A stretch of DNA of 64,000 nt from a virus, in IMG/VR virus record IMGVR_UViG_3300034200_001443, positions 70,381-134,380 of that record, one strand, 5' to 3'. How positions within the stretch are numbered: the stretch's first letter is position 1; each line of letters starts with the position of its first letter. The position numbers were made by a program, and so were the translations under genes. This document shows, one piece after another, positions 14,537 to 41,902 of the stretch. Below the pieces are notes generated by a model, which was given only the letters and a program-made list of their open reading frames with translations, had not been told where the DNA came from and searched no databases.

Positions 14537-15004
14537 CTACTCCAAATCAAGAACCACGACTTGTCTGCCCTCAACTTGTGGCATTTGATTATTTTCAATC
14601 ATGCAGACATTTACAAATTGTTCAATCAGGTATTGGCAAGCATGGTCAAAGGCTTCATCTGCTTGGTGATTGACCATGTCCAAATGCTCTCCGTCAGAAC
14701 TGTAAACATCAAACCACGAATTGTTTTGCCAATCCAATCGGGGATAATTCCCAGAACTTGCTTCTGCTAAAGCTTTATCCGTAAGTAGATCATCAGGGAA
14801 CTCGCTACTGTTTGTGTAAGTGCTACCCGTTTCCCTGTCCTCAATCTTGGTATCTCCGTCTACATAAATCGTGACTTCAAAATCTCCTAGTCCTACTTTG
14901 CAGACCGCTCCCTTTTCCCACCACACGCTTTCTTGGTGGTCGCCGTCAGGTGTGTTTCCATCAAGCCAAAAGAACTCAATCTCGTATTCCCCTGCCGTTG
15001 GCAT
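14537..15004 (-). CDS. Acidic hypothetical protein
   Basis: Junction motif; WQNNSWF. Confidence 0.6.
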   Translation of the reverse strand: MPTAGEYEIEFFWLDGNTPDGDHQESVWWEKGAVCKVGLGDFEVTIYVDGDTKIEDRETGSTYTNSSEFPDDLLTDKALAEASSGNYPRLDWQNNSWFDVYSSDGEHLDMVNHQADEAFDHACQYLIEQFVNVCMIENNQMPQVEGRQVVVLDLE

Positions 15005-15006
15005 TT

Positions 15007-15234
15007 TTACCCCTCGTTCAGTTTTTTCAAGAGCGAGCCTACTTGTTCCGTTGCTTCGTATTCCAAATCCATTTCGATAGGGTCGTCATAATTTAATGTT
15101 CTCCACCTGCCCTCATCATGATCTACTCCGTCCCATACCGGGCCGTTCTTAAACCATGAACCTAAAGCTTCGTCTGCCGATGCCCATTTTTTTGTTTCCG
15201 TATTAAAACAAATTAAGTAATGGATTTCTGCCAT
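15007..15234 (-). CDS. Hypothetical protein
   Basis: TAATG coupling with the upstream gene. Confidence 0.6.
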   Translation of the reverse strand: MAEIHYLICFNTETKKWASADEALGSWFKNGPVWDGVDHDEGRWRTLNYDDPIEMDLEYEATEQVGSLLKKLNEG

Positions 15235-15386
15235 TACAAAATCTCTCTTGCGTCAAAGTTCGCCTTATGAACTAGGTCGCCGTATTCCTCTGCCGTCCAA
15301 GCCTCTGCTTGTCGTAGAGCCTCGTCCTTGCTATCGGCTTCCCATACTGTTCTGATACTTGCCGATACTACAACTTCGTATTTCAT
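15234..15386 (-). CDS. Hypothetical protein (50 aa, not in ORF track)
   Basis: MKYEVVVSASIRTVWEADS...; AAATGACGAAAGGG leader and TTGACG/TATGAT promoter. Confidence 0.65.
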   Translation of the reverse strand: MKYEVVVSASIRTVWEADSKDEALRQAEAWTAEEYGDLVHKANFDAREIL

Positions 15387-15703
15387 TTTTTCCCTTTCGT
15401 CATTTGTTCTTGTTATCCAATCCTATCATACCTATCCAAATACCCGTCAATACCAAATTAAAGTTTTTACTTCCTATGCTCTCTTTTTAATTTTTGAGCG
15501 TAATTCCCGGTAGGGTGCTACCTTTTTTTCGGAACTAAAAACTTCTAGTTAAAGGTGTTTAGTTTTACTGTGGTGCGGAAAATAAGTTATTCACTTCCGT
15601 CATGCTTCAGCTAATCCACGCTCACGACTACTTCGGTCTGCTGACTTGGTGGGGAACTGAAAACTTCCACACGATCTTGCGACCCGTTTCTTTTTACCCC
15701 GAC

Positions 15704-15750
15704 AACGAAAAACCCCCTACGCAACACCGATTCCGTAGGGGGCTTCCGTT
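15704..15750 (-). terminator. Large-loop intrinsic terminator after the VWA gene
   Basis: CCCCCUACG/CGUAGGGGG stem followed by U tract on the minus strand. Confidence 0.7.
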
Positions 15751-15752
15751 AA

Positions 15753-15801
15753 TCGTAATCGGGGGGACACACGCACCAATAAGGACGATACCCGACCACG
15801 A
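15753..15801 (-). ncRNA. Hairpin with a loop antisense to the VWA-gene leader
   Basis: 11-bp stem with 2 G-U pairs (minus strand); loop boxes complementary to the mRNA at 17606-17613 and 17621-17629. Confidence 0.6.
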
Positions 15802-15818
15802 AATCTCTTGCCGTTATC

Positions 15819-17600
15819 TCACGCCACGAACCTTTGCCCTGCCGTTGATAAAACTTTCTCGGCGTTCTTGCCGATAATTAAAGCAGACACACTTGGGTCA
15901 GTTATGTTCTCAACAACTTGGGCGTTCGCCGTTCCACAAATATGTTTAGCAGTTGAGCCGTTATCGCCAATCGGTAGCCATAGAACTGCTACGCCGTTCT
16001 TTGAGCAACGAGCAACCCACGCCTTTGCGTTCTCTGTTTCCTCATGTGTGTAGTGTCCGTCAGATACAACAACTAATAATCTTGCGCCCTCACCATTAAG
16101 TAGATTGAGTGCGCCGTCCAAAGCACGAAACGCTTTATCAAACTTTTCAGTTCCGTCAGGGGCAGAATAAACATTTACTTCTTTTAGTCGTTGCCCTGCT
16201 TTTAGAGTTGGGAAAACATCTGAACCATAATAAACCATAGCGCAACGACCCTGAACTCGGCGAACTGCCTCACTCATAATCCAAGCAGTAGAAGCCATTG
16301 GGTTCATAGCAGAACTCATTGACCCTGAAATATCTACCATTACGCCAACTGAAAGTGTTGGTTCATCTGTGTGCTTACGAACTTTTTTTGAGAAAGCAGT
16401 TGGTTGAGAATAAACTCCACGACTTTCCAAAGCCTTAGCCTCAATTACTTTTCTCATGTTTAATTTTCCGGGTGGAACAATACTTTTAACTTTAGTTATT
16501 CCACGCTCACGATACTTTGCTCTTTCTAAAGCCTTAGCAATTTTAACTGCGCTATTGCGTTCTTGACCATTAGGGCTTCGCTTCTCAACTAACTTAGAAG
16601 CAGTATGCGCTTCCCCCGGACCTGAACTCTTTGAGAATACTTGACGAGCAATTTCCTCATTTTTCTTTTGCTCTTTAGAAGTATTGGCTTTAGCAGTTGC
16701 GCTCTCTTTCATATCCTCTGATTGCTTTTGGTCTGCTAATTCATTGGCATTAGAAATAGAAATACTTTCGCTCATCTCGCCAAGCATTTCGCTAATCATT
16801 TCAGCAAAGGCTTCTTGTTGTTCTTGGGTTGGTTGTTCCCCTGCTTCCTCTGCCTTTTCACGAACTAATTTCGCCCACTCAATCGCTAGTGGATAGCAAG
16901 CAGAAATATCAGTATGAGTTGCGTGGTCTTGGAACTGATAAATAATTTCTTTTAATTTCATAACTAAATCAGAACCTAAAATCCCATTGACTTTATCTAC
17001 TAAATCAAAGGCTTCTAATTCATCAAGCGACCCTGCGATAATTCTTGCGTGGCATAATCCAACTAAAGAACTAGCAGAACGAATTGTTGATTGCTCTGAA
17101 AATACTTCTTTGGCTTCGTCAATAATTAAACCCATAGCACTTGCTCGTAAAAAAACTTTTGCGTCAGCGTGGGTCTTAATACCCCATGCTTCTATGCGAC
17201 CTTCCTCTAGCAACATCAAAGCCTCAAACTCATCTTGCTTTAGTGTCTTACCTGCTAGTGGAATATCCCATGCTGAAAACTTTGCGTGGTATGCCTCATG
17301 GCGAATTGCGCCAACTGCTTTAGCAAACTCGTATTGGTTCTTTCGCTTTGTTAAATCGTCAATCATGTTAGGTGTAGTGATTTCGCCAAAGGCTACTTTT
17401 GTATTTACTTCTACTTCTGCGAGAGCAGGTAAGAAACAAGCAGGTGCGCCTTGACCTGCTTCTGTTCCTAGTAAAGCAACTAGGTCAGTTCTATCAGCCC
17501 AAGTATTTACTAATTGAGTAATTTCATATCCAACTCCTAGCCAATCGCTAGGTGTCTTAATCTTGGAACGATTAAGTTCCTGTGGCTTTATGTGTGCCAT
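15819..17600 (-). CDS. VWA-domain protein (CobT/NorD-like) with N-terminal HExxH motif
   Basis: VDISGSM MIDAS motif, VVSDG and HEAYH. Confidence 0.85.
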   Translation of the reverse strand: MAHIKPQELNRSKIKTPSDWLGVGYEITQLVNTWADRTDLVALLGTEAGQGAPACFLPALAEVEVNTKVAFGEITTPNMIDDLTKRKNQYEFAKAVGAIRHEAYHAKFSAWDIPLAGKTLKQDEFEALMLLEEGRIEAWGIKTHADAKVFLRASAMGLIIDEAKEVFSEQSTIRSASSLVGLCHARIIAGSLDELEAFDLVDKVNGILGSDLVMKLKEIIYQFQDHATHTDISACYPLAIEWAKLVREKAEEAGEQPTQEQQEAFAEMISEMLGEMSESISISNANELADQKQSEDMKESATAKANTSKEQKKNEEIARQVFSKSSGPGEAHTASKLVEKRSPNGQERNSAVKIAKALERAKYRERGITKVKSIVPPGKLNMRKVIEAKALESRGVYSQPTAFSKKVRKHTDEPTLSVGVMVDISGSMSSAMNPMASTAWIMSEAVRRVQGRCAMVYYGSDVFPTLKAGQRLKEVNVYSAPDGTEKFDKAFRALDGALNLLNGEGARLLVVVSDGHYTHEETENAKAWVARCSKNGVAVLWLPIGDNGSTAKHICGTANAQVVENITDPSVSALIIGKNAEKVLSTAGQRFVA

Positions 17601-17777
17601 GTCTTTCGTCCTTTTCTAATCGTGTGTCCTTACAAAACCTATCATACCATTTTGGGGGGGATAATCAAACTTAGGGCTTGGCGTGGGGTGGGGAACTTGG
17701 GAAGTGATTTTAGATCCTGGAACCAAAGCTTTAACCCTGCCCTGCGTTATTTAGTTTTATTTACCCCTAGTTATTTA

Positions 17778-17812
17778 GAGAGTGGGAGTAGAGATACCTA
17801 ACTCCCACCCTC
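17778..17812 (-). ncRNA. Hairpin with a loop antisense to the RBS of gene 18912..19370
   Basis: 12-bp stem; loop GGUAUCUCU can pair with AGAGAUACC at 19372-19380. Confidence 0.5.
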
Positions 17813-17840
17813 AAAGCCAACACTAGGTTCTAGGGAAAAC

Positions 17841-18899
17841 CTAGATTTTCGCTGGCTTATGCTCTGCGCCGAACGCCCGAGCAATTACATCAACAACTAC
17901 ATCTCTATCTATTTCAGGTGCGCTCGCAATTAAATTAGAAATTGCGAACTCTGTTCCAAAGACTTCACTTGTATCTCTGAAACCTAGCAACTCACGCATT
18001 TGTGGCGACCATGAGATTTCAGCACTATCGCCTTGTGTGCGCTTGTATAGATTTTGAGCAACGCTAACCATTGTCGCTGGCACTCCTAACTTCTTTGCCA
18101 ACGCCCAATCAGTAGTTAGTTCTGCTTGGATTTGGAAACGAGATATTAACGCTTCACTCATGCGAACCCCCGGAGCATTTGGGTTAGTAGCAGAAACTAC
18201 ATAAAAATCCTCATGGACTTTAATAGTTCCTCTTTCAGGGTTCATTGGAATTGTTATCTCTTTTCGTCCGTCCATTACTGAATAGACAACTGCTAAGGCT
18301 TTAGGGTCAATCAAACCAATCTCGTCAATAAAGAAAGGCTTTCCAAACTCAACTGCCTTAATAAATCCTGCGTCAATCCACTCAAACTTTCCACTTGGGG
18401 TCTGAATAAACGAACCATAAAAATCATTGGTATCAGTATCACCATTACCAATTAAAGTTATTACTTCGTCATTAGAAAAACTTGCTTCTACTAAAGCAGT
18501 TTTTCCTGTTCCCGGAACTCCATAGAAAAATGCGAATTGTGGAGAACCAACGCCCTCTGAAAAGAACTTCTTAGTTGCTTCTCTTGCTCGGCGTAGAACT
18601 GCTACATCAGTATGAACTCCCCATTGGCGAGTGAAATACTTTTGTCCATTAGGGCGAACATAGAACTCATCAGCACTCATGTTATCCACCTCAACTCCAC
18701 TAGGGGTCATAGCACTAACTCGCTCTCTCGCTTTTCTTTTATCGCCACTTGCTCGCTCAACGCAACGACCACTTGGTAGAACTTTTGCGCTAAGTCGCAA
18801 AGAAGTATCCTCATGGACACTTTGGGTCAAGCAATCAGAAACGATATTCCAAAAATCGCCTCTTAAAGAAGCCAACTTGTCTTTGATAATTGTATCCAT
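17841..18899 (-). CDS. MoxR/CbbQ/CobS-like AAA+ ATPase
   Basis: GVPGTGKT Walker A, FIDEI Walker B, ATNP and ALISRF. Confidence 0.88.
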   Translation of the reverse strand: MDTIIKDKLASLRGDFWNIVSDCLTQSVHEDTSLRLSAKVLPSGRCVERASGDKRKARERVSAMTPSGVEVDNMSADEFYVRPNGQKYFTRQWGVHTDVAVLRRAREATKKFFSEGVGSPQFAFFYGVPGTGKTALVEASFSNDEVITLIGNGDTDTNDFYGSFIQTPSGKFEWIDAGFIKAVEFGKPFFIDEIGLIDPKALAVVYSVMDGRKEITIPMNPERGTIKVHEDFYVVSATNPNAPGVRMSEALISRFQIQAELTTDWALAKKLGVPATMVSVAQNLYKRTQGDSAEISWSPQMRELLGFRDTSEVFGTEFAISNLIASAPEIDRDVVVDVIARAFGAEHKPAKI

Positions 18900-18911
18900 T
18901 TTTATTGCCCC

Positions 18912-19370
18912 CTAAGCAATCTCAACAGGAAAGCCAAGTGCTTTTCTGCTTTGGTTGATACGATAAACAACTTTGATAGGTGTTTCACCTTTGTAAATCT
19001 CAATTAAATCATTTTGAGAAGTTTCTATCAGAATTGGGTCATTTACTAATTGCCAATCACCCTCAACCAATCCTGCGAAAATAGAGTTCAGGTGTTCTAA
19101 ACGCTTAGAAACATAAGTGTCTTTAAGACCTAGTTCTGCTAAATCTTGTGAGCCAACTTTTGCTAATTCCTCTGCGAACTGAACAGTTGTCTGTTGCCAT
19201 AACTTCTTTGGCTTTTCTCTAGAAACAATCCTGCGATAAATCTTGGCAGGAACTAAATCACCTGACGGCGTAAATCCGTCAGGGGTAATAAACATTTCTG
19301 TTCTGTATCCCGATTTTGCGAACTCGGCATAAACAGAAACACCCTGAATTGACTTTTCTTTGTCTAGCAT
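18912..19370 (-). CDS. Hypothetical protein upstream of the AAA+/VWA pair
   Basis: RBS and promoter; co-oriented. Confidence 0.7.
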   Translation of the reverse strand: MLDKEKSIQGVSVYAEFAKSGYRTEMFITPDGFTPSGDLVPAKIYRRIVSREKPKKLWQQTTVQFAEELAKVGSQDLAELGLKDTYVSKRLEHLNSIFAGLVEGDWQLVNDPILIETSQNDLIEIYKGETPIKVVYRINQSRKALGFPVEIA

Positions 19371-19470
19371 TGGTATCTCTTTTCGTCATTTACCTAATTC
19401 CCTACGAACTAGGTGTTGGGTCAATCTTACCATTTTCTATCATAGAAGCAAATTAGGCTAGGTGTGTCTT

Positions 19471-19523
19471 AAAAAAGGTTCTACCCCCACACTAAAATGA
19501 CGAGTAAAAGTATGGGGGTAGAA
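19471..19523 (-). terminator. Terminator whose 15-nt loop is antisense to the AAAUGACGA leader motif
   Basis: 15-bp stem with a G-U on the minus strand, U6 tail; loop UUUACUCGUCAUUUU. Confidence 0.7.
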
Positions 19524-19589
19524 ATCTATGTTTCCAGTTCCTAAGAAAGAGAAGCTTTAGAAAACCCTTTCTATGAGAACTGAAAGTTA

Positions 19590-19880
19590 TCAGTTCATAT
19601 CGACTTCGATCAACTGTGCTGGAAGTTCGTCGGCAGGGGGTAAAACTTTGTGCGGTTTAATTCCGTACTTTTTAAATTCTTTTTTATACTTCTTTGAGTC
19701 ACGACCCTCTGTAATCCAATCCGATATCAGTCGTGCAACCAAAAAGCGTTCCTCGTCCTTAGCTTCACGAACTAACAAGAAGTCCTCGTGTATCCAGTTT
19801 TCTGTACCAATCACCGTTATCTTGTCAGCGTTTCCGTAGTTTCCGTCAACATCAAAATAATGTATACGTCCCATGGGCAC
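19590..19880 (-). CDS. Hypothetical protein
   Basis: YFDVDGNYG motif; GAAAGGAG RBS. Confidence 0.65.
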   Translation of the reverse strand: MPMGRIHYFDVDGNYGNADKITVIGTENWIHEDFLLVREAKDEERFLVARLISDWITEGRDSKKYKKEFKKYGIKPHKVLPPADELPAQLIEVDMN

Positions 19881-20021
19881 TCTCCTTTCCTCTAGCCGTT
19901 AGTCTACCTGCTGCTGCAGCGCTGTTACTCGTCTTGCCGTTTTTATTTCCGGGCATCTGGCCTGGATCCAAACTCCTCTTGCCGTTGAGTGGGGCAGGGT
20001 TTTACCCCCACCCCCTCGCCG

Positions 20022-20267
20022 TTATTCAATCCAAAGGTCTCCTCTAATGAACCCGTGTTCTTTCACAACTGCTACACCCTTCATGAATGCTTCGTCTTTT
20101 GTAGTAGCACCTCGGACTAGCGAGAAGTTGTGCTCGCCGTCTTCGTCCGTGTAGCCAACTTGCCATGCTTCCCATGCCTCGTTGTATTCCACCTTGACGG
20201 CTTGCCGTAAGTCCTCTATCTCGCCGTTTCGTAGTTCAATCTCAAAGTAGCCCTCGTTCTTAATCAT
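20022..20267 (-). CDS. Hypothetical protein
   Basis: 4-bp overlap with the upstream gene. Confidence 0.6.
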   Translation of the reverse strand: MIKNEGYFEIELRNGEIEDLRQAVKVEYNEAWEAWQVGYTDEDGEHNFSLVRGATTKDEAFMKGVAVVKEHGFIRGDLWIE

Positions 20268-20869
20268 GCCGTTGCCTTTGCTTTCTCTAGTGCTGGTGGG
20301 CAGTCGTCATAAAGATACTCTTCATACTCTTCAGGGTCTTCCGCATACTGTTCGCAGTTATAGCACTCAACACCAAGAGTTTCCCAAGCCGAATGGTTTA
20401 ACTCGCCACCTTCTTCGGAAACCATCTCGCCAGCCTTGTAGATTTCAATACCCCAGAAATCACAACCAGACTCGTAATACTTATGTTCAATACTTAGTTC
20501 CGGGAAAATCTCTGACAGCGTTTTTGTTGTTAGTGTTGGTGGGGCCCAAGCAGAGTCAAACGAATAACTAATAAACTCATCTCCCTCTTTATAGTCATTC
20601 ATATAAACATTGCCATAGACATCCCACTTAGTTCCCCAAGAGTTGATGTTGTTGTGATACCAGTCGTCTGGACCTTTGCTCTCAAAATCTTTTCCTAGCA
20701 ATGATTCTGAATCAGGAACAGATGGTTTGATATTGGCAAGTGAGTAAAGAACATTCTCTATCTGCTTACCATCTTCATCAGTTATTGGTCTGCCAACAAA
20801 CTCTTTTAACTTCTTGACTGCATCAGCGTTTCCACTAATGCTGATTGTGTTATCGCACCAATTAGGCAT
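20264..20869 (-). CDS. DUF1281/YubB ferredoxin-like (Api92-like) protein
   Basis: MPNWCDN...WGTKWD...FDSAWAPP...Y.E.G. Confidence 0.8.
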   Translation of the reverse strand: MPNWCDNTISISGNADAVKKLKEFVGRPITDEDGKQIENVLYSLANIKPSVPDSESLLGKDFESKGPDDWYHNNINSWGTKWDVYGNVYMNDYKEGDEFISYSFDSAWAPPTLTTKTLSEIFPELSIEHKYYESGCDFWGIEIYKAGEMVSEEGGELNHSAWETLGVECYNCEQYAEDPEEYEEYLYDDCPPALEKAKATA

Positions 20870-21110
20870 TGTGTTCCTCATGTTCTATTACAGACTGAGT
20901 AATCTCTAAACCAAGAGCCTCAATCGCTGTCCCTAAATCGTCAATCGCTTCATCTATATTTTGACGAACATCAAAGTAATCCCATGGATTCTCGTCAGTC
21001 TTTGGTGAGCGAATGTATTGCAAATCAACTGCACATGAAACTGCAATGTTAATTACCTTAATTGCATTCTCATCACCAGCCAAATACTTTTCTGCTAGTT
21101 CTTGATACAT
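20862..21110 (-). CDS. Hypothetical protein
   Basis: Start reassigned to MYQEL (21110), directly after AAATGACGAAAGGG. Confidence 0.6.
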   Translation of the reverse strand: MYQELAEKYLAGDENAIKVINIAVSCAVDLQYIRSPKTDENPWDYFDVRQNIDEAIDDLGTAIEALGLEITQSVIEHEEHNA

Positions 21111-41650: not shown

Positions 41651-41902
41651 ATGAGTTATTCACGAATGCTTGAAAACGACATCTATGTCTTCGCAACTAA
41701 TATTGCAGGTGCTCCTGCGATCTATTGCTGCATGTGCCCCCTAGAAGAGGGGATGGAGCAAACTGGCTTTGTAGCTCGTCGTACCCAAGACATGTTGGAG
41801 CACTTGGAGGAGCATCGCAAGGTAGGGCACAGAATGCCTTCAACTATAGATGAAGAGCTCCTTGCAGATGATGCAGAGAACTTTCCTGTACGACCCATCT
41901 AA
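41651..41902 (+). CDS. Hypothetical protein, probably from a leaderless mRNA
   Basis: TTGACC-16-TACAAT ends 6 nt before the ATG; CCMC...H...H. Confidence 0.65.
   Translation: MSYSRMLENDIYVFATNIAGAPAIYCCMCPLEEGMEQTGFVARRTQDMLEHLEEHRKVGHRMPSTIDEELLADDAENFPVRPI

Follow-up and report, generated by a model that had tools for sequence, protein, structure and literature searches.

A phage gene followed by a hairpin whose loop is complementary to the ribosome-binding leader of the same gene

Why should the leader of a phage gene be repeated, in inverted orientation, just after the stop codon of the same gene? We addressed this question in a 64,000-nucleotide stretch of DNA (hereafter, the window), positions 70,381 to 134,380 of the virus record IMGVR_UViG_3300034200_001443. 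A sequence-only reading of the window had proposed that the loop of a 3' UTR hairpin can pair with the ribosome-binding site (RBS) of its own gene, about 1.8 kb upstream, and had compared this design with the a'/b' boxes of C4. If so, related loci should keep both partners through compensatory changes. We therefore verified the repeat, examined the transcription unit around it, and compared it with related viral loci.

The repeat was confirmed exactly. The + strand at 15765-15788 reads GGACACACG-CACCAAT-AAGGACGA, whereas the - strand at 17629-17606 reads GGACACACG-ATTAGAA-AAGGACGA and is followed by AAGAC-ATG, with the start codon at 17600-17598. That is, 9+8 nt are identical and the spacing is 7 nt in both copies, while the spacers share 1 of 7 positions. 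The second box covers the Shine-Dalgarno (SD) sequence, as AAGGA lies 8-9 nt before the ATG. With up to 3 mismatches, the two-box pattern had only these 2 matches in 64 kb, against an expectation of 0.02, and 0 of 100 shuffles gave 2 or more. With up to 2 mismatches, it had only these 2 matches in the whole 134,380-bp virus record. However, the boxes taken singly were not remarkable; GGACACACG with up to 1 mismatch gave 6 matches against 5.7 expected, and AAGGACGA gave 5 exact matches against 1.4 expected. Extra copies of the boxes at 19753-19795 (-) lie inside a coding frame and were taken as chance.

We next examined the gene between the two copies. The coding sequence at 15819-17600 (-) encodes 593 aa, a candidate VWA-domain (CobT/CoxE-like) partner of the AAA_5 (MoxR-class) ATPase gene at 17841-18899 (-). 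The Pfam VWA_CoxE match gave E=3.7e-5 and 23.7 bits, below the 26.4-bit cut-off, and searches of PHROGs, NCBIfam and PDB sequences gave no name for the protein. A 46%-identical homologue in OQ999401 is annotated as "cobalamin biosynthesis protein". The upstream gene is clearer, matching AAA_5 at 1.6e-13 as well as Midasin and CbbQ/NorQ structures. In a consensus scan, the VWA-like gene showed its own predicted promoter at 17641-17668 (-), comprising TTGATT (17668-17663), a 16-nt spacer and a TG-extended TATGAT (17646-17641), with 9 of 12 matches to the consensus. The transcription start is predicted at about 17633-17634, which leaves a predicted leader of about 33 nt (17601-17633, -) with box 1 (17629-17621, GGACACACG) near the inferred 5' end and box 2 (17613-17606, AAGGACGA) as the SD.

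The downstream copy lies in a hairpin at 15753-15801 (-), which starts 17 nt after the TGA stop at 15821-15819. The 5' arm (15801-15791) and the 3' arm (15763-15753) form 11 bp including two G.U pairs, and the 27-nt loop (15790-15764) holds anti-box 2 (15788-15781, UCGUCCUU) and anti-box 1 (15773-15765, CGUGUGUCC). The fold of the 136-nt 3' region had z = -3.4, and 0 of 200 shuffles folded as well. This hairpin is not itself an intrinsic terminator, given its 27-nt loop and the absence of a U-tract after 15753. It is followed by a separate intrinsic-terminator-like element at 15708-15742 (-), in which the stem CCCCCUACG (15742-15734) with CGUAGGGGG (15721-15713) precedes U5 (15712-15708), the predicted 3' end of the mRNA. 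A simple terminator scan did not list this element because its loop exceeds 8 nt; it was seen in the minimum-free-energy structure. The anti-SD motif thus lies between the stop codon and the predicted terminator of a gene with its own predicted promoter.

The duplex of the loop with its own leader was predicted at -30.2 kcal/mol. Leaving aside the loop's own antisense site (-52.6), this was the second-best site of 67,170 windows in the whole genome and the best of 4,563 windows in the locus. The one site with equal predicted energy, 41701-41740 (-), is not at a gene start and was taken as chance. Among 150 ORFs of at least 70 aa in the window, this gene was the top outlier for pairing of its leader with its 3' region, at -33.8 kcal/mol against a mean of -14.6 (sd 4.7).

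To assess whether the pairing is conserved, we collected 52 related viral loci. With the window, 53 were obtained, of which 49 were usable, and these were dereplicated to 36 representatives including the window, whose relatives share 45-92% protein identity with the window's gene. A first test using the whole 60-nt 3' region as the probe against all 40-nt windows of each locus did not discriminate, as the GC-rich stem arms pair with many sites; the own leader was best in 1 of 36. Therefore, we used the hairpin loop alone. The own leader was then the single best site in the roughly 4.7-kb locus, counting both strands, in 14 of 36 representatives, and at most 3 sites were better in 22 of 36. Own loop-leader pairs averaged -19.8 kcal/mol against -13.7 for non-own pairs, and none of 10,000 permutations reached this value. 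In 24 of 36, at least 8 nt of perfect Watson-Crick complement was found, and 27 of 36 beat shuffled loops at p<=0.05. However, 9 of 36 showed no significant complementarity, including L027, L040, L042, L044 and L046 (locus numbers of the comparison set), mostly on long branches. The homologue in Microbacterium phage Pumpernickel, at 31% identity, has a hairpin after the stop but no complement to its leader.

The paired sequences differ between clades in a compensatory way. The types AAGGACGA/TCGTCCTT, AAGGGAAA/TTTCCCTT, GGGAAC/GTTCCC, GGAAACGA/TCGTTTCC, TGACGGAAGGA/TCCTTCCGTCA, TTTGGACACG/CGTGTCCAAA and GGACACAGGACA/TGTCCTGTGTCC are spread over both major clades of the protein tree, and the pair in the GenBank relative OQ999401 is AGGACAAGTAAAC/GTTTACTTGTCCT. 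The related loci therefore keep both partners with compensatory changes, and the pairing proposed in the sequence-only reading is supported. The bipartite form is nevertheless clade-specific, since one large clade uses a single 9-12-nt box. Mismatches flanking the helices were A.C in 48 cases and G.U in 12, which follows base composition and gives no strand support for the long-range helix itself; internal single mismatches (0, then 2) were too few to be informative.

We then examined the stem. A MAFFT alignment of 26 hairpins followed by RNAalifold gave 0 predicted pairs because the arms were not in register; we therefore counted pairs outward from the loop. Own arms paired at 7.3 of 8 positions against 3.95 of 8 for mismatched arms, although the stems were defined from each sequence's own fold, which biases the own figures upward. 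In 30 of 36 representatives, at least 7 of 8 loop-proximal positions were paired, and several pair types occurred at every position. The stem was more stable on the sense strand than on the antisense strand in 29 of 36 (Wilcoxon p=3.6e-6; the rows are not phylogenetically independent). A -10-like hexamer (at least 5 of 6) lay 18-60 nt upstream of the ATG in 28 of 36, against 5% of random 42-nt windows. We also considered whether the loop regulates the RBS of the downstream gene. The 130 nt downstream of the hairpin paired better than the own leader in only 7 of 36, which are the representatives with weak own-leader pairing, no clear hairpin or a badly drawn loop. In one large clade the hairpin has no terminator after it and the next gene follows; the only architecture common to all is therefore leader and loop on one transcript.

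Taken as a self-contained transcription unit of promoter, short leader, coding sequence, hairpin and terminator, the VWA/CobT-like gene most likely presents in its loop a pyrimidine-rich sequence that masks the SD region, and in this clade also the 5'-proximal part, of the same mRNA's leader. We consider this reading somewhat more likely than not. Once the 3' end has been made, loop and leader would pair, most likely within one molecule, as a loop-to-linear, pseudoknot-like contact that can go on to invade the stem and occlude the RBS and the 5' end. The full-length message would then stop being translated, the duplex may become a substrate for a double-strand RNase, and the output of the VWA subunit would be capped. 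The transcript ends, co-transcription of leader and loop, cis rather than trans action, repression and any RNase involvement are inferred, and there are no transcript data; 21 RNA library runs hold small shares of the stretch, and contigs of 4 lake metatranscriptome runs covered only pieces of the coding sequence and of the upstream gene, with nothing on the 3' UTR and one relative's contig ending inside the leader at 17616. Such contigs cannot show strand, ends or expression, and no conclusion was drawn from them. In a nested folding model, the leader did not displace the stem (ddG about 0) in roughly a third of representatives, and own ddG <= -5 kcal/mol occurred in 18 of 36, against 97 of 400 mismatched pairs; pairing there must be a pseudoknot-like loop contact. 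In addition, ribosomes can load during the roughly 1.8 kb of transcription before the loop exists, so repression cannot be complete.

The loop, however, is more conserved than its supposed partner. Mean pairwise identity was 73% for the loop, 58% for the leader and 63% for the coding DNA, and the loop is 100% identical among L013, L018 and L019, whose proteins are 58-66% identical and whose leaders differ. In L018 and L026, the loop's box-1 complement has no partner in the 40-nt leader, and 17-18 of 35 foreign leaders pair better than their own; the loop may therefore have a further constraint or partner. It could primarily be a binding site for a phage or host protein or another conserved RNA, its complementarity to SD-like leaders being a by-product of a pyrimidine-rich, anti-SD-like sequence. 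We regard this as very unlikely, as the complementarity extends well beyond the SD core and changes in step on both sides in several clades, and the own leader is the best site in the locus in 14 of 36. The conservation of the loop would also suit a trans-acting riboregulator, in which the hairpin (plus the terminator in this clade), released by processing or transcribed on its own as a small RNA of about 100 nt, pairs with leaders of newly made mRNAs, its own gene's and in some phages those of other genes. A seed-bearing hairpin followed by an intrinsic terminator, as in the window's clade, appears to be the usual layout of 3'-UTR-derived small RNAs. In the single-box clade, the GACGGAAGG motif also sits on other genes' leaders, with extra copies in 5 of 14 loci, and all 4 inspected are true leaders; specificity for the own leader is thus not absolute there. 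In L030, a second leader pairs almost as well as the own one (-24.2 against -25.9 kcal/mol). Trans action remains possible but less likely. In the window's genome only the own leader carries the two boxes, and the promoter scan reported no sigma-70-like promoter on the minus strand just upstream of the hairpin. A crude test found a terminator-like hairpin after the element in 10 of 36 representatives and in none of the single-box clade.

The same pairing might instead protect or delay, either by sequestering the 5' end from 5'-end-dependent RNases, as in hbs, or by holding the full-length mRNA inert until 3' trimming removes the loop, a hok-like timer that delays VWA synthesis. In most clades the paired region starts within about 5-15 nt of the predicted 5' end. 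Still, the element common to all clades is the SD itself, so the first-order effect of pairing is loss of ribosome binding, and we consider this alternative unlikely. A DNA-level inverted repeat, as two operator or recombination sites bracketing the gene, is very unlikely, although on double-stranded DNA the two copies are identical inverted 9+8-bp sites with equal spacing. Binding of a protein to DNA had been the rival named in the sequence-only reading. It is disfavoured because the 3' copy lies in the loop of a covarying stem that is stronger on the sense RNA strand, and because the paired sequences differ widely between relatives while tracking the SD. The spacers differ, so there is no shared crossover core, and a chance repeat is excluded by the pattern counts and the permutation test.

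The closest precedent is icaR of Staphylococcus aureus, in which a pyrimidine-rich anti-SD motif in the 3' UTR pairs with the SD region of the same gene's mRNA, blocks the initiation complex and creates an RNase III substrate (PMC3868564); its authors could not exclude intermolecular action either. icaR has a long 3' UTR, whereas here the motif sits in the loop of a hairpin 4-26 nt after the stop codon, in a double-stranded-DNA phage, is bipartite in this clade, and is supported by covariation across relatives but by no experiment; there is no sequence homology. The icaR discussion names hok of plasmid R1 (hok/sok), in which pairing of the 3' end with the 5' end keeps a full-length mRNA translationally inert. 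The hok mRNA, of about 400 nt, is probably activated by 3' trimming and then controlled by the Sok antisense RNA; no antisense partner and no trimming are known here, and the gene is not a toxin. In hbs of Bacillus subtilis, a 14-bp interaction between the two UTRs modulates RNase Y cleavage in the leader and does not cover the SD (PMC5737220), whereas here the SD is the core of the paired region. Also in B. subtilis, pyrimidine-rich anti-SD-like octamers hundreds of nt downstream pair with the RBS, promote decay and inhibit initiation (Gill et al. 2025, PMC12697547); those are synthetic substitutions, and such sequences are reported as depleted from native genes, whereas here one is conserved and presented in a dedicated hairpin about 1.8 kb from the RBS. 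The comparison with C4 of phages P1/P7 holds only as a functional analogy, in that two short boxes in an RNA loop seem to pair there with two boxes around an RBS, with regulator and target made from one transcript. C4 probably lies upstream of its target and is processed out, and an Rfam 15 scan of 15000-20000 at E<=1 gave no C4 match, returning only a sub-threshold SurC match at 17750-17815.

End-to-end pairing of bacterial mRNAs is known from very few cases, and the icaR authors call theirs "a singular example" (PMC3868564). The icaR and hbs cases rest on experiments in a single host species, and no phage mRNA whose 3' UTR pairs with its own RBS was described in the titles and abstracts that we surveyed. 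Here, a whole family of uncultured lake phages, predicted to infect actinobacteria, keeps such a pairing across deep divergence with compensatory changes, which is strong comparative evidence that the design is selected. It also supplies many natural variants in loop presentation, one box versus two, and distance from the stop codon, and suggests that the VWA-like subunit of the presumed phage AAA+/VWA pair needs tighter dosage or timing control than its partner. More speculatively, and with a low likelihood in our view, the element could be a conserved closed-loop device in messages of double-stranded-DNA phages, in which the mRNA can be translated only while it is still being transcribed, or only after its 3' end has been trimmed. 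The hairpin emerging right after the stop codon would capture the leader and the 5' end, giving a fixed burst or a timed delay of the VWA subunit relative to its AAA+ partner. This would be the first 5'-3' UTR interaction in a bacterial or phage mRNA backed by phylogenetic covariation. The hairpin starts only 4-12 nt after the stop codon in about half of the representatives; terminating ribosomes could therefore melt the stem and tune the capture.

The 134,380-bp virus record, of which the window is the last 64 kb, carries direct terminal repeats. The gene of interest is on the minus strand (15819-17600) and encodes a 593-aa product with a weak match to VWA_CoxE (E=3.7e-5; 23.7 bits, below the 26.4-bit cut-off), whereas PHROG, NCBIfam and PDB sequence searches gave no match of use. 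The gene directly upstream on the same strand (17841-18899) is a clear AAA_5 ATPase related to Midasin and CbbQ/NorQ; therefore, the pair looks like a MoxR-class AAA+ ATPase with its VWA partner. In the closest GenBank record, the metagenome-assembled Actinomycetia phage DSL-LC01 (OQ999401), whose host was predicted by software only (PMC10611076), the VWA homologue (46% identity) is annotated 'cobalamin biosynthesis protein' next to an 'AAA family ATPase'. The two genes in the window are adjacent but separated by 240 nt that hold a promoter-like site. The two partners therefore appear to be transcribed separately, and only the VWA gene carries the leader/3'-hairpin device.

The sequence-only reading had noted that the VWA gene is bracketed by two boxes shared between its leader and the loop of a hairpin past its stop codon, and this observation holds exactly. 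The mRNA leader reads GGACACACG-ATTAGAA-AAGGACGA-AAGAC-AUG at 17629-17598 on the minus strand, and the plus strand at 15765-15788 reads GGACACACG-CACCAAT-AAGGACGA; that is, the mRNA strand there is the complement of both boxes. When up to 3 mismatches were allowed, the pattern had only these two matches in the window, against 0.02 expected, and 0 of 100 shuffles gave two. With up to 2 mismatches, these were the only two matches in the whole genome. Each box alone is not special, and the extra copies at 19753-19795 lie inside a coding frame. The downstream copy lies in the 27-nt loop (15790-15764) of an 11-bp stem (15801-15791 with 15763-15753, including two G.U pairs) that starts 17 nt after the TGA stop. 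A separate strong hairpin (15742-15713) followed by U5 (15712-15708) comes next and looks like the terminator. On the 5' side, a TG-extended -10 promoter-like site (TTGATT-16-TATGAT, 17668-17641) puts the predicted transcription start near 17633, in which case the leader is about 33 nt long and box 1 starts about 5 nt from the 5' end. Many genes of these phages share a short leader of the type (T)GACG(A/G)AAGG about 5-10 nt before the start codon, placed some 12-13 nt after a TG-extended TATAAT/TATGAT -10 element, as seen at 15380-15400 (-) and 19371-19400 (-) in the window and in the related viral loci L030, L032, L034 and L038, suggesting one promoter and leader class for a set of genes.

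We then assessed the specificity of the pairing within this phage. Among 150 ORFs of at least 70 aa in the window, the VWA gene was the top outlier for pairing between its own leader and its own 3' region, at -33.8 kcal/mol against a mean of -14.6 (sd 4.7); that is, the design is not a general habit of this genome. The whole genome was also scanned with the loop as probe (67,170 windows). After the trivial antisense self-site, the own leader (-30.2 kcal/mol) was one of the two best sites. The other, at 41701-41740 on the minus strand (-30.7 kcal/mol), lies opposite a plus-strand ORF and not at a gene start, and was taken as chance. An Rfam scan of 15000-20000 found nothing relevant and no C4 match.

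Next, we conducted a protein-guided scan of viral contigs, which gave 52 loci with 44-92% protein identity, or 53 with the window. Four loci were dropped before the counts: L010 and L052, whose reading frames are interrupted, L024, which has no stop codon in the locus, and L045, which has no start codon in the locus. L010 and L052 nevertheless carry the loop motif after the gene. The 49 usable loci were dereplicated to 36 representatives, nearly all of which have a hairpin 4-26 nt after the stop codon, with loops mostly of 9-30 nt. Counting outward from the loop, own arms paired at 7.3 of 8 positions, against 3.95 of 8 for arms taken from different loci, although the stems were defined from each sequence's own fold, which favours the 'own' figure. 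In 30 of 36 representatives at least 7 of 8 positions were paired, and every position showed several pair types. With the loop held unpaired, the stem was more stable on the sense strand than on the antisense strand in 29 of 36 (Wilcoxon p=3.6e-6; the rows are related, so this is not a true probability), which points to an RNA structure on the mRNA strand.

To examine loop-leader complementarity in the relatives, we first used the whole 60-nt 3' region as probe. This test failed to discriminate, with the own leader best in 1 of 36; the GC-rich stem arms pair with many sites. We therefore used the loop alone as probe against every 40-nt window of each locus of about 4.7 kb, on both strands. The own leader was the single best site in 14 of 36, and at most 3 sites were better in 22 of 36. 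In the 36x36 matrix of loops against leaders, own pairs averaged -19.8 kcal/mol and non-own pairs -13.7 kcal/mol, and none of 10,000 permutations reached the observed mean, although relatedness inflates this test. In addition, 24 of 36 representatives had at least 8 nt of perfect Watson-Crick complement, and 27 of 36 beat shuffled loops at p<=0.05.

The paired sequences differ between clades in step. The leader and loop sequences were AAGGACGA and TCGTCCTT in the window and L007, AAGGGAAA and TTTCCCTT in L005, GGGAAC and GTTCCC in L006, GGAAACGA and TCGTTTCC in L039, TTTGGACACG and CGTGTCCAAA in L011, GGACAA and TTGTCC in L016, GGACACAGGACA and TGTCCTGTGTCC in L049, and TGACGGAAGGA and TCCTTCCGTCA in the large single-box clade. 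In L021, the leader holds GAGGGAA and AGGACAG and the loop TTCCCTC and CTGTCCT. The L049 leader (L049:1430-1500) holds four to five tandem GGACA(C) units, and the hairpin region after the stop (L049:3342-3375) holds matching tandem UGUCC units, an expanded form of the same pairing. In DSL-LC01, the loop has a 13-nt complement to the 5' part of the leader and an 8-nt complement to the SD. On the protein tree, the element is present in both major clades, and sister groups differ by compensatory changes, so it is ancestral and maintained; the members without it sit mostly on long branches.

Simpler readings were also considered. The region downstream of the hairpin, including the next gene's leader, paired with the loop better than the own leader in only 7 of 36 representatives, namely those with weak own-leader pairing (L014, L026), with no significant complement (L027, L040, L042, L046) or with a badly drawn loop (L049). 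A -10-like hexamer lies 18-60 nt upstream of the start codon in 28 of 36, against 5% of random windows. The gene generally has its own predicted promoter and a short leader.

However, the loop is more conserved than its partner. Mean pairwise identity among nine representatives of the two-box clade was 73% for the loop, 58% for the leader and 63% for the coding DNA. In the hairpins of L013, L018 and L019, from three subclades with 58-66% VWA protein identity, the 22-nt loop is 100% identical and the whole hairpin 89-96% identical; this non-coding element is far more conserved than the gene it follows. In L018 and L026, the loop keeps the box-1 complement although the 40-nt leader has no box 1, and their own leaders are no better than about half of the foreign ones. 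In the single-box clade, GACGGAAGG is a common leader motif; extra copies occur in 5 of 14 loci, and the four inspected all lie between a TATAAT-type promoter and a start codon. In L030, a second leader pairs nearly as well as the own one. In that clade, the loop could also touch other messages. Furthermore, a loop-to-leader helix crosses the hairpin stem. In a nested folding model, the leader displaced the stem by -10 to -19 kcal/mol in the window's clade but did not do so in the clade with long GC-rich stems, where the contact must be a loop-to-linear one. Mismatch types at the helix flanks followed base composition and did not indicate a strand.

The best-supported reading is an autoregulatory RNA-RNA contact, in which the hairpin loop in the 3' UTR captures the SD region of the same gene's leader, and in this clade also the 5'-proximal box, thereby blocking ribosome loading on the completed message and possibly creating a substrate for a double-strand RNase. 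This reading rests on sequence comparison without transcript data, and the repression itself is inferred; contigs from four lake metatranscriptome runs cover only coding pieces and say nothing about ends or strand. The same logic has been shown experimentally for icaR (PMC3868564), and the reading is consistent with the finding that anti-SD-like sequences far downstream of an RBS repress expression (PMC12697547). We favour cis action because the one architecture common to all clades is leader and loop on a single predicted transcript, and because in this genome the own leader is the only two-box target. Trans action by a released 3' fragment nevertheless remains possible, as does, more tentatively, a protective or timing role like that of hbs (PMC5737220) or hok. 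A DNA-level protein site is unlikely.

The element is not a member of any sequence family in Rfam, and it is not a C4 RNA, to whose a'/b' boxes the sequence-only reading had likened the bipartite design. No description of such an element in a phage mRNA was found among the titles and abstracts listed in our literature searches. It appears to work like the icaR, hok and hbs class of end-to-end mRNA pairings but differs from them in that it is in a double-stranded-DNA phage, that the anti-leader is presented in a dedicated hairpin loop immediately after the stop codon, that it is bipartite in one clade and single-box in another, and that its support is comparative (covariation across deep divergence) rather than experimental. 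Elsewhere in the window, a 205-aa ORF at 20264-20881 (-) matches Pfam DUF1281_C (ferredoxin-like domain of Api92-like proteins, E=2e-9).
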